NCBI RefSeq assembly: GCF_003334355.1
Contig: NZ_QOWP01000006.1
Strand: one strand, 5' to 3'
DNA length: 64,000 bases
Source of the DNA: Escherichia coli
GTDB taxonomy: Bacteria > Pseudomonadota > Gammaproteobacteria > Enterobacterales > Enterobacteriaceae
Shown: piece after piece, positions 55,355 to 60,572 of the stretch
Layout: each line of letters starts with the position of its first letter
How positions within the stretch are numbered: position 1 is the stretch's first letter
Translations under genes and position numbers: made by a program
The notes under the pieces: generated by a model
Databases searched by the model: none
What the model was told of the DNA's origin: nothing
Seen by the model: only the letters and a program-made list of their open reading frames with translations

Positions 55355-56728
55355 TTACTGGTTTTCAGCCAGCTGACGATCGTGGCGGCGTTTAAACATC
55401 CAGCCAATCAACAGCACAACAATCCACGCGAAACCGACATACAGCGAGATACGCGTATCCGGGTGATAACCAATCAACCCGATAATAAAGAGCAGGAAAA
55501 TCAGCCCGCCGATGGTCGTTGCTACCCCACCCGGCACTTTAAATTTCAGCGCCTTAACTTCTTCTGGCGGCAAACGGCGACGGAAGGCAATTTGCGACAG
55601 CAGGATCATAATCCACACCCACACCGTGGCGAAGGTTGCCAGCGAAGCGATCACCAGGAAGACGTTTTCCGGCATGATGTAGTTCAGATACACCGCAAAC
55701 AGCAGCGCGGTAGTCATCACCAGCACCGTAACCCACGGAATACCGCGACGCGACGTTTTGCTGAAAATTTTCGGCGCGCTGCCCTGCTCTGCCATACCGT
55801 GGAGCATACGGCCTACGCCAAATACATCACTGTTAATTGCCGACAGCGAAGCAGTCAGCACAACAAAGTTAAGAATGCTGGCGGCAAAGGTAATGCCCAT
55901 ATGCTGGAACGTCAGCACGAACGGGCTACCGGCAGTGCCAACCTGATTCCACGGGTAGATAGACATAATGACGAACAGCGTACCGACGTAGAACACCAGA
56001 ATACGCATCGGCACGGAGTTAATCGCACGCGGTATCGATTTCTCAGGATCTTTCGCTTCACCGGCGGTAATCCCGATAATTTCGATCCCACCGTAAGCAA
56101 ACATCACCATTTGCAACGACATTACCATGCCAAGCCAGCCGTTACTGAAGAAGCCGCCGTTGCTCCACAGGTTATGAATACCGGTCGGTTGCCCGCCGTT
56201 GCCAATCCCCCAGATGATGATGCCGAAACCGGCGACAATCATGATGATGATGGTGGCGACTTTAAAGAACGAGAACCAGAATTCCAGCTCACCGAATACC
56301 TTCACGCTCATCAGGTTTACGGCGCAAATGATCAGCACCACGCTCAGTACCCAAATCCAGTGCGGCACCGTCGGGAACCAGACACCCATATAGATACCAA
56401 AAGCGGTCACATCGGCGATGGCGACAATAAGGATTTCAAAGCAGTAGGTCCAGCCGGTAATGTAACCTGCCAGCGGGCCGAGGTTTTCCTGCGCATAACG
56501 CGAGAAAGAGCTGGCGGCCGGGTTATGTACCGACATTTCCCCCAGCGCACGCATAATGATATACGCCGCGATACCACCGATAATATAGGCCAACAACACG
56601 CTCGGACCGGCCATTTTGATGGCGTCTGCCGAACCGTAAAACAGCCCGGTGCCAATTGCTGAACCCAGTGCCATAAAGCGTATGTGGCGGGTACTTAGCC
56701 CACGCTTTAGCTTGTTCTTACTTTCCAT
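55355..56728 (-). CDS. proY: APC-family amino acid permease ProY
   Basis: ORF track 55355..56731, second ATG 56728 gives 457 aa ([32 protein letters not shown]...). Confidence 0.95.
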
Positions 56729-56749
56729 CAATTCCTAACCCATCAACAC

Positions 56750-56803: not shown

Positions 56804-58123
56804 TTAGTGAGCGCTGGAGGTCACCTGACGACCTGCCGCGCGATCCCAGATAATGGCCAGAACCACCATCACCACTGTTGGCATTAACCACGCCAGACCT
56901 TGTTCGGCCAGCGGTAAACGCTGCGCCCAGGACGGTAAGATATCGCTGAATGCAGATGCTTTGATCCCGTCGAGAATACCAAAAAGCAGGCTGATAAACA
57001 TCGGCGGAGCAATCACGCGGGACGAATTATGCCACCATGAGCGTGTAAAACTTAATACAACCAGTGCGATACACGGCGGATAAATAGCGGTCAGCACCGG
57101 TACGGAGATCTGGATCAGCTGGCTTAAGCCGAGGTTAGAAACCACCATCGAGAAGCCGCCGAGGATAAACACCAGCGTACGATAAGAGAGCGGTACGTAC
57201 TGGGCAAAGAATTCTGCACAAGCACAGGTCAGGCCAACTGCCGTTACCAGGCAGGCGATGAAGATTAACGCCGCCAGCAGGAAGCTACCGCCGCCGCCAA
57301 AGGTGTGCTGAACGTAAGCATGCAGAATAGCAGCGCCGTTTGCAGACTGATCGACCAGCGACGCGCTGTCTGACCCCAGACGGAACAGCGCCAGGTACAG
57401 CAGAGTCAGACCAACACCCGCCATCAGGCCAGCCCAGACGGTATAACGGGTCAGCAGACGCGCTTCGGTAACGCCACGAGAACGCGCCGCGTTAACAATA
57501 ACGATACCAAACACCATTGCGCCCAGCGTATCCATGGTCAGATAGCCGTTAACGAAGCCGTTAGAAAACGCAGCGTTTTGATAAGCCTCAGTCGCCGTGC
57601 TGATAGAACCCGCCGGCCAGACAATAGCGGCAACAGACAGGATGACCAGCGCGATAATTTTCAGCGGCGCAAGGAAGTTGCCCACGGTATCCAGCAGCTT
57701 GCCCGGATAGAGCGAAACCAGAATAACGATAGCGAAATAGACCAGGCTGTAGATAAACAGCGGCAGCGCGGAATCACCCGTCAGCGGCGCAATCCCCACT
57801 TCAAAGGAAACGGTAGCTGTACGCGGCGTAGCGAAAAGCGGCCCCACCGCCAGGTAACAAACCGTTGCCAGCAGTACGCCAGCGACTTTACCGATTGGCG
57901 TGCTGAGGCTGTCAACACCGCCGCCAACTTTTGCCAGCGCCACTACCGTTAATACCGGCAGGCCAACGGCAGTAATGAGGAAGCCGAATGCCGCAGTCCA
58001 GACGTGTTCGCCTGCCTGTAAGCCGACCATTGGAGGGAAAATAATGTTACCTGCGCCGACGAACAACGCAAATGTCATAAAGCCCAGAGCGATGATATCG
58101 CGCGATCTTAATTGATGGGTCAT
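56804..58123 (-). CDS. brnQ: branched-chain amino acid transporter BrnQ (LIVCS family)
   Basis: 439 aa, [34 protein letters not shown]... Confidence 0.97.
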
Positions 58124-58472
58124 AAATCATACTGCCTGTGGATGTGGTGTTGTAACGTTAAATTTTTGTGCCAATCCCTGGGGATGATACAGCGGTATAT
58201 TTAAACAATTTTAGCGGGAAATACTCCCAACCAGGCGCGGCGAAGAATAGTTTTTCGATTTACCGCGTTAATGCAGTCAGTATGACAGCACCTGAAGCGC
58301 AATTTAAACGCTTATAACGTTTTAAAGCAAGGAGGGATCTAAAAACCAGAGGTATATAGCGATAAGAAATCACCAACCAGTATAAAACACTATTTCCGTG
58401 AAAAAGACATGGCTAATCATGCGAACAAAAAATCACCAACCGTTGTAAAATCTAACGCCCGTATTTTGACTG

Positions 58473-58504
58473 CAAAGAAAATAAGCCAGCATCGACTGGC
58501 TTAT
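58473..58504 (-). terminator. phoBR terminator
   Basis: Minus strand ATAAGCCAG-tcgatg-CTGGCTTAT followed by TTTCTTTG. Confidence 0.55.
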
Positions 58505-58529
58505 GGCAATAAAAGATGACAAAGGCGGA

Positions 58530-59825
58530 TTAATCGCTGTTTTTGGCAATTAAACGTTCCGGGATAACAAAACTGAAACGTGTTCCTTTTCCTACTGTAC
58601 TCTCAATATTCAGGCGACTTTCGTGATGATTCACAGCATGTTTCACGATCGCTAACCCTAATCCGCTACCGCCGGTTTGCCGGGAACGCGCTTTATCAAC
58701 GCGATAAAAACGCTCGGTCAGGCGCGGAATATGCTCCGGTGCAATGCCCGGTCCGTTATCTTCAACGCTAAATTCGGCACCGTGCGGCACTCGCTGCCAG
58801 CGTACGGTGATATGCGTGCCTTCCGGCGTATGATTCACGGCGTTATAGACCAGGTTCGAAATCGCACTGCGTAGCTGATCTTCGTTGCCAGACACCTTGA
58901 GGCCGTTATCTATCTCAAAGGTAAATGTCTGTTTTTTCTGACTCAGAGTCTGAGCCTCGCGCTCAACAACGCGCAGCATCATCGGCACATCAACCTTTTC
59001 ATTGAGCAAATGCGTCGGTGCGGCTTCTATTTTCGACAGCGTCAGCAATTGCTTCACCAGTCCTTCCATCCGCTGGGTCTGCTCGCGCATGGTGTGCAAC
59101 GCTTTTTCGCGTACCGCGCCTTCCAGCGGCTGCTCATTCATCATCTCCAGGTAACCCTGTAACACGGTCAATGGCGTACGTAACTCATGGCTCACGTTGG
59201 CAAAAAAGTTACGCCGCGCCCCTTCCAGTTGATGCATTTGCGTGACATCACGCGCCACCATCAGCAACTGTTTGTGGGTATAAGGCATGACGCGAATTTC
59301 CAGATGCCGCCCGGTGTTGAGCACCAGATTGAGCGGGCGAGAAAAATCACGCGTTTTCAGATATTGCGTAAACTCCGGGTAACGCAGTAGGTTAAGGATG
59401 TTCTGCCCGTTATCTTCCGGCCAGCGCAAACCAAGAATTTGTTGCGCCAGACCGTTACACCAGAAAATACCGCCCTCTTCCGTGGTCAGCACCACCGCGT
59501 CGGGCAGCGACTCCGCGCCGCTACGAAAGCGTTTAATCAGATTGCCCAGTTCACGGCGGCGTTTTTTATTTCGCAGCTGCATCTGGTGTAAGCCGTATAG
59601 TAGCGGTTCCCAGCTACCACGCCCCGGTGGCGGGGTCATACTGCGATCCACCCACAGCCACCATGAAAGGCGCAATAAATTCCAGAAATGCCAGATAAGC
59701 AGTCCTGTTACCGATGCCAGCAAAAACCAGGGCAGGTAACCAAAAAATGCACCCAGGATGAAAGCCGGGAGGCAGCAAAGTAGCAGCTCCAGCACCAGCC
59801 TTTTCCACGACAGCCGTTCCAGCAC
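58530..59825 (-). CDS. phoR: phosphate-regulon sensor histidine kinase PhoR
   Basis: 431 aa; HisKA H-box SHELRTPLT; HATPase N/G boxes; directly downstream of phoB. Confidence 0.98.
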
Positions 59826-59882: not shown

Positions 59883-60572
59883 TTAAAAGCGGGTTGAAAA
59901 ACGATATCCTGTACCGCGCACGGTCTGCACCATGCGGTCATGCCCGCCGGGCTCCAGTGCTTTACGCAGGCGACGAATGTGGACATCGACCGTGCGGTCT
60001 TCCACATACACGTTAGTTCCCCAGACGTGGTTTAACAGCTGCTCGCGGCTGTACACGCGCTCAGGATGCGTCATAAAAAAGTGCAGCAGTTTAAATTCTG
60101 TCGGCCCCATCTCCAGCGGCTCTTCGCCCGCCATCACTCGGTGAGATGTCGGGTCGAGACTTAATCCCTGCATCTCAATCACCTCTTCCACCGCCATTGG
60201 CGAAATACGGCGCATTACCGCTTTGATTCGCGCCACCAGCTCCTTCGGCGAAAACGGCTTGGTGATATAGTCATCCGCGCCGGTTTCAAGGCCGCGCACG
60301 CGATCTTCTTCTTCCCCTCTGGCGGTCAACATCACCACTGGAATATCCCGGGTCATCGACTCGCGCTTGAGGTGTTTGATGAACTGGATACCGGAGCCGC
60401 CAGGTAACATCCAGTCAAGGAGAATTAAATCCGGCCAGGGTTCATTCAGTTGATTCACAGCACTGTCATAATCTTCCGCTTCGACCGGCTGAAAGCCATT
60501 TTGTTCGAGCACGAAGCAGACCATTTCGCGAATTGGAGCTTCATCTTCTACGACCAGAATACGTCTCGCCAT
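59883..60572 (-). CDS. phoB: phosphate-regulon response regulator PhoB
   Basis: 229 aa, [18 protein letters not shown]...; receiver domain plus OmpR-type winged helix; Pho boxes upstream. Confidence 0.98.

Follow-up and report, generated by a model that had tools for sequence, protein, structure and literature searches.

The direct repeat upstream of Escherichia coli brnQ may belong to a phased Lrp-binding control region of constrained length

Two segments sharing an identical 12-bp core, placed on the same face of the DNA in the spacer between phoR and brnQ, raise a simple question. Are they a paired operator, parts of a larger control region, or a by-product of how such sequence evolves? 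To our knowledge, the regulation of BrnQ, the low-affinity branched-chain amino acid carrier, is poorly described. The DNA analyzed here is a single 64-kb stretch of an E. coli genome (the window), in which the minus-strand genes proY (55355-56731), brnQ (56804-58123), phoR (58530-59825), and phoB (59883-60572) surround the spacer. The spacer itself occupies 58124-58529, 406 bp, between the phoR stop at 58530 and the brnQ ATG at 58123; spacer positions are counted in the brnQ sense, so that a window coordinate equals 58530 minus the spacer position. It was found in 5425 of 5426 complete E. coli genomes and carries no annotated feature in PGAP-annotated RefSeq genomes or in the curated K-12 MG1655 record. 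Three features of its phoR-proximal half are needed at the outset:

58472-58504, minus strand: intrinsic terminator of phoR, a hairpin (58504-58481) followed by a T-tract; in the brnQ sense, R1 comes after it
58427-58452, minus strand: repeat copy R1, phoR-proximal, GATTTTACAACGGTTGGTGATTTTTT in the brnQ sense, core at 58430-58441
58364-58389, minus strand: repeat copy R2, promoter-proximal, TGTTTTATACTGGTTGGTGATTTCTT in the brnQ sense, core at 58367-58378

The window holds exactly two copies of AAATCACCAACC (58367-58378 and 58430-58441), a sequence that reads GGTTGGTGATTT in the brnQ sense. Extended copies at 58364-58387 and 58427-58450 are identical at 20 of 24 positions, with starts 63 bp apart. 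The sequence-only reading that drew attention to this pair had described the shared core, the 63-bp offset, and a position 240 to 330 bp upstream of brnQ in a 406-bp spacer; all of this holds, the measured distance being 241 to 329 bp upstream of the ATG. Only two exact core copies exist in 64 kb, which does not fit a dispersed repeat family such as REP/BIME or MITE elements, and the 40-bp central segment was found once in each of 5424 E. coli genomes. One tandem array was seen in the neighborhood of the pair: Escherichia sp. MOD1-EC7003 carries an insertion of ~0.75 kb in the phoR terminator region (1388-2086 of the extracted locus), made of about six tandem units of ~117 bp with a REP/BIME-like look, which enlarges its spacer to 1147 bp and leaves the repeats and the promoter untouched.

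The location of the pair relative to the brnQ promoter narrows the possibilities. A single transcription start site (TSS) is listed for brnQ, with a 5' untranslated region (UTR) of 170 nt and the upstream sequence ...TTGCTTTAAAACGTTATAAGCGTTTAAATTGCGCTTCA (Kim et al. 2012, PMC3415461), and it maps to an A at window position 58293. The orthologous brnQ promoter and start of Klebsiella pneumoniae are mapped in the same TSS table (PMC3415461). The promoter and leader are laid out as follows:

58293-58350, minus strand: brnQ core promoter with a conserved upstream block, anchored on the published TSS (PMC3415461), nearly invariant over 58295-58349, with 88% identity across genera
58325-58330 and 58302-58307, minus strand: σ70 promoter elements of brnQ, -35 TTGCTT and -10 TTAAAT, respectively
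58124-58292, minus strand: brnQ 5' UTR, 170 nt, with an invariant C/A-rich element and an SD near the ATG

Relative to this TSS, R1 spans -159 to -134 and R2 spans -96 to -71, with the cores at -148 to -137 and -85 to -74. The repeats thus lie upstream of the mapped TSS, in upstream promoter DNA and outside the brnQ mRNA. The conserved upstream block includes TCTGGTTTTTAGATCCC at -57 to -41, with an invariant GATC. A generic σ70 scan found no promoter on either strand of the spacer and also missed the experimentally mapped brnQ promoter.

A known structured RNA at the repeats was rejected, since the repeats lie upstream of the TSS and a scan of the spacer against Rfam at E ≤ 10 returned no family, only a chance match to tmRNA at 8.4 bits. 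Two small open reading frames were also rejected. The sense frame (MISH..., 16 codons, 58260-58376, minus strand) ends at an in-frame TGA inside the R2 core; it is open for 32 to 38 codons in Citrobacter and Enterobacter, but its ATG is lost in several Citrobacter species and it is cut at codon 7 to 16 in many genera, including Escherichia. The antisense frame (MANHANKK..., 36 amino acids, 58409-58519, plus strand) overlaps the repeats, varies in length from 8 to 43 codons, and has often lost its start.

The leader downstream of the TSS has features of its own. Its C/A-rich element with the SD, CAACACCACATCCACAGGCAGT at 58131-58152, is 97.7% identical across genera. brnQ is listed as a target of the R1 region of GcvB that has been verified in Salmonella and is also conserved in E. 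coli (PMC9299463), and the sequence of the C/A-rich element fits the R1 site reported for GcvB. Two candidate leader hairpins were drawn by hand, at 58232-58263 and 58212-58226, and show modest covariation only. The first pairs GCGYGG with CCRCGC, one base pair of which swaps between C-G and U-A, and encloses a 20-nt loop that is nearly invariant, AAAUCGAAAAACUAUUCUUC; the second pairs GGGAG with UCCC. RNAalifold predicted essentially no structure in the brnQ 5' UTR, these hairpins included. A σ54-like sequence, TGGCAC-N5-TTTAA, is present at 58159-58175 in Escherichia only, and a genomic SELEX table for RpoN plus NtrC has a peak at 418832 in the phoR-brnQ spacer (PMC8743547).

The sequence-only reading had offered an Lrp-type oligomerizing regulator of brnQ as an example of what might bind the pair. 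Genomic SELEX with Lrp gave a peak at 418534 in the same spacer, with brnQ-proY as the target (Shimada et al. 2015, PMC5320599 Table S1). In the genome coordinates of that period the peak falls at spacer position ~126, window position ~58404, midway between the two repeats; the assay uses purified protein alone in vitro and its resolution is coarse. We scanned the spacer with the 15-bp Lrp consensus YAGHAWATTWTDCTR, which is degenerate and AT-rich. In E. coli the top-scoring segment of the spacer is TAGTGTTTTATACTG, which scores 13/15 and adjoins the R2 core. Conservation was assessed on brnQ loci from 80 Enterobacteriaceae species, 69 of which contributed spacers to the alignment, and four candidate sites stand out together with one highly conserved block:

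58347-58361, minus strand: Lrp-like 15-mer A, center -61, scoring 10/15 in E. coli but 12/15 or more in 74% of the 69 species
58378-58392, minus strand: Lrp-like 15-mer B, TAGTGTTTTATACTG, center -92, 13/15, overlapping the AT-rich arm of R2
58410-58424, minus strand: Lrp-like 15-mer C, center -124, 11/15, a weak match within the invariant block
58443-58457, minus strand: Lrp-like 15-mer D, CGTTAGATTTTACAA, center -157, 11/15, overlapping the AT-rich arm of R1
58407-58433, minus strand: invariant 27-bp block, ATTTTTTGTTCGCATGATTAGCCATGT, between the repeats at -140 to -114, containing 15-mer C

The highest mean Lrp scores upstream of the promoter in the 69-species alignment fall at spacer positions 169, 138, 106, and 73, corresponding to -61, -92, -124, and -157, and they exceed those of column-permuted motifs (p of 0.044, 0.019, 0.010, and 0.008 for ranks 1 to 4). 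These four positions are separated by 31, 32, and 33 bp, in that order, a phasing matched by 0.3% of permuted motifs. Given sites phased at 31 to 33 bp, the 63-bp offset of the repeats corresponds to two periods of the array. Sites B and D have mean scores of 11.3/15 and only 9.2/15 over the species, respectively; the outer positions of B are kept in many genera, and D is a tentative site. In register, D and B are 65 bp apart, against 63 bp for the repeats. A second motif, the ilvIH-type 13-mer AGAATTTTATTCT, recovers the -61 and -92 sites with weaker statistics and adds two matches in the leader, at +38 and +69. Next to the promoter-proximal Lrp-like site, the conserved TCTGGTTTTNNGATCCC block holds a single invariant GATC, a Dam site, at 58336-58339 (-46 to -43).

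What matches the Lrp consensus in the repeats is their AT-rich arms, TTTTATACTG and TTTTACAACG, together with neighboring segments; the 12-bp cores fall between the matches, and the core itself has no resemblance to the consensus. The proposal of an Lrp-type regulator is therefore partly supported, for the spacer, which is bound by Lrp in vitro and carries phased candidate sites, but not for the cores, which are unlike the consensus and unconserved. A literature search, to which genome-wide Lrp ChIP sets were out of reach, found no in vivo Lrp occupancy of the region or Lrp-dependent brnQ expression. In one RNA-seq table, brnQ was unchanged while livJ and livKHMGF fell 3- to 7-fold (PMC7373191).

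On balance, we favor a reading in which the brnQ promoter has a phased upstream control region, constrained in length and bound by Lrp, and the two 26-bp segments form alternate members of it. Dimers of an Lrp oligomer would sit on 15-bp AT-rich sites near -157, -124, -92, and -61, spaced 31 to 33 bp apart. The AT-rich arms of the repeats (TTTTAYA) would form parts of the sites centered at -157 and -92, and the GGTTGGTGATTT cores would be the linkers that follow these two sites. This model draws on one in vitro data set, motif statistics, and conservation of spacing.

Phased regions with several Lrp sites are known in E. coli from the ilvIH, gltBDF, and dadAX promoters and the pap regulatory region. 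The brnQ region resembles them in having several degenerate AT-rich 15-bp candidate sites similar to YAGHAWATTWTDCTR upstream of a σ70 promoter, in their center-to-center spacing of ~30 to 33 bp with the proximal site near -60, and in being bound by purified Lrp in vitro ahead of an amino acid transport gene. It differs in that its sites are candidates from motif matches, in that conservation of one 27-bp segment goes far beyond that of known Lrp sites, and in that two of its linkers happen to be identical 12-mers in E. coli.

In the strongest competing explanation, the repeat has no role of its own at any level. The resemblance of the two segments would then have arisen by chance or slippage in T/G-rich filler constrained in length alone, and the invariant and promoter-proximal blocks would do all of the regulating. 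In a first-order Markov simulation of the spacer, a 12-mer direct repeat appeared in 1.6% of trials. In the real window, 5 such repeats at most 100 bp apart are observed versus 0.33 expected, indicating that local 12-mer repeats are over-represented in general and that the pair upstream of brnQ is unexceptional by count. Since such repeats are common in real sequence, their count alone is weak evidence of function, and the five comparable cases favor a by-product.

The poor conservation of the pair favors it as well. In most genera the spacer is about 405 to 412 bp long. Outside Escherichia the R1 core is 68% identical, near the spacer average, and the R2 core is 43.5% identical, the 24th least conserved of 395 12-mer windows. 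Nearer relatives depart from the pair too: E. albertii has GAATGGTGATTT and GATTGATGATTT at the core positions, differing from E. coli in both copies, and in the cryptic clades of Escherichia the cores read GTCTGGTGATTT/GGTTGATTATTT and GTCTGCTGATTT/GGTTGGTGATTT; the repeat is absent from these lineages. Even the exact 12/12 identity is a polymorphism within E. coli. The 96-bp haplotype of the window is carried by 3332 of 5424 complete genomes, and K-12 and its relatives (344 genomes) have AAATCACCAATC in R1, an 11/12 match. Conservation in relatives, proposed in the sequence-only reading as a check on the pair, was accordingly not found in K-12, E. albertii, the cryptic clades, or other genera. 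A further idea, that a two-site module was duplicated in tandem long ago to give two 63-bp units, was rejected on similar grounds: over 69 species the similarity between the units has a median z of about 0, and it reaches significance only in E. coli and in three species of Kluyvera, a restriction that leaves an ancient duplicated module unsupported.

Variation among strains bears on both sides of the question. Strain A39 (NZ_CP028737.1) has a 343-bp spacer (201-543 of the extracted locus) with an exact 63-bp deletion bounded by the repeats, which leaves one hybrid copy and takes out the invariant block, with brnQ and its promoter intact. That a wild isolate tolerates this loss speaks for a repeat of no consequence. 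In about 150 genomes of the 042/N3 type, strain 042 included, the two cores share a derived A-to-G substitution at corresponding positions (155 genomes with G in R1 and 142 with G plus a further C-to-T change in R2), and six genomes have AAATCGCCAACC in both copies; outgroups indicate that A is ancestral at this position in both cores. In Kluyvera, a different direct repeat occupies the orthologous pair of positions, with two copies of GTCTGGTTGTT in K. georgiana and CGTCTGaTTATTTTTT/CGTCTGcTTATTTTTT in K. ascorbata; where the species differ by G versus A, both copies show the difference. The co-substitution in E. coli and the independent repeat in Kluyvera hint at more than drift and thereby tell against a mere by-product, but conversion alone could explain both. 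A further point against it is that the best match to the Lrp consensus in the spacer overlaps the arm of R2, with outer positions kept in many genera. Overall, we regard a repeat without a role of its own as a serious but rather unlikely explanation.

Taken together, the A39 deletion, the co-substitution in E. coli, and the matched repeat of Kluyvera suggest that the two segments have undergone slippage or templated conversion with each other; the co-substitution, seen in a single lineage per genus, is suggestive only. Selection for matched linkers is a possible alternative to conversion. Short nearby direct repeats are known substrates of replication slippage and templated mutation, including RecA-independent deletion. 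The brnQ repeats behave like them in that A39 lost exactly one 63-bp period and kept a single hybrid copy, and in that both copies share a substitution in one lineage. They differ from such cases in having only 12 exact bases (24 with mismatches) and in that conversion is read from population data. Within the favored model of a phased Lrp-binding region, the 12/12 identity of the cores would be recent and specific to E. coli, and was probably made and kept by slipped-strand or templated conversion, not by the recognition of a regulator.

A second competitor gives the leading part to the invariant 27-bp block rather than to Lrp. Here a specific regulator conserved in Enterobacteriaceae would bind the block and set the architecture, and the flanking repeats would be incidental or auxiliary. 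The block, to which the 3' T-run of R1 belongs, is 85 to 89% identical across about 65 non-Escherichia species, far above what a degenerate Lrp site needs, so that another factor may be the real organizer. No further copies were found when they were sought, the block occurring once per E. coli genome. In 70 of the 73 species compared, exactly 107 bp separate the block from the promoter anchor, while the UTR length ranges from 195 to 216 nt. This distance stays fixed while the intervening sequence, including the R2 core, drifts, indicating a constraint on length and not on sequence. Loss of the block, by the deletion seen in A39, was apparently found in only 1 of about 5425 E. coli genomes. Against a block-binding regulator as the organizer, Lrp binds the spacer in vitro with a peak adjoining the block, and the block itself holds an 11/15 Lrp-like 15-mer. 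Nor was a known motif recognized: inspection by eye of the cores and the block gave no convincing match to the consensus of PhoB, CRP, IHF, FNR, TyrR, PhoP, RcsB, or σ54. We consider it improbable that the block, and not Lrp, sets the architecture. Yet more speculative is an extension to which we give little credence, namely, that the linkers flanking an operator invariant throughout Enterobacteriaceae evolve in concert, as the shared substitution of E. coli and the separate repeat of Kluyvera might indicate, through an unusually active templated-conversion hotspot or selection for matched arms, and that the block is the site of a specific regulator of branched-chain amino acid uptake 107 bp off the promoter. 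The invariant block is a more interesting object in the phoR-brnQ spacer than the pair of 12-mers.

The simplest idea, that the cores are a paired operator for a dimeric or oligomeric regulator recognizing GGTTGGTGATTT on the same face six turns apart, would account for the exact 12/12 identity, the 63-bp spacing, and the joint change of both cores to AAATCGCCAACC in one E. coli lineage, but it is very improbable: the cores are unrecognizable in other genera though brnQ, its promoter, and the spacing are conserved, they match at only 11/12 in K-12 and are altered in E. albertii and the cryptic clades, the only other matches to the core with one mismatch in the window lie inside ORFs, and selection from one fixed DNA-binding protein does not predict covariation of two sites. 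The identical 12-mers themselves are thus probably not the operator. Tandem direct-repeat operators of response regulators, such as the Pho box of PhoB with its 7-bp half-sites 11 bp apart, are a natural comparison, since PhoB is encoded next door and the brnQ pair is likewise a direct repeat upstream of a promoter. In contrast to the Pho box, the brnQ repeats are 63 bp apart, their cores do not resemble CTGTCAT, and the cores are not conserved in orthologous promoters.

For the biology of branched-chain amino acid uptake, the analysis provides a map of the brnQ control region: a mapped promoter, a length-constrained upstream region bound by Lrp in vitro with four candidate phased sites, the invariant block, and a leader site of the GcvB type. 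It also gives a caution for the reading of bacterial intergenic regions, because two exact 12-mers on the same face of the helix can be no operator at all but a polymorphic by-product of recent origin. The repeat pair itself is a small natural example of repeat-mediated deletion and of probable templated co-substitution.
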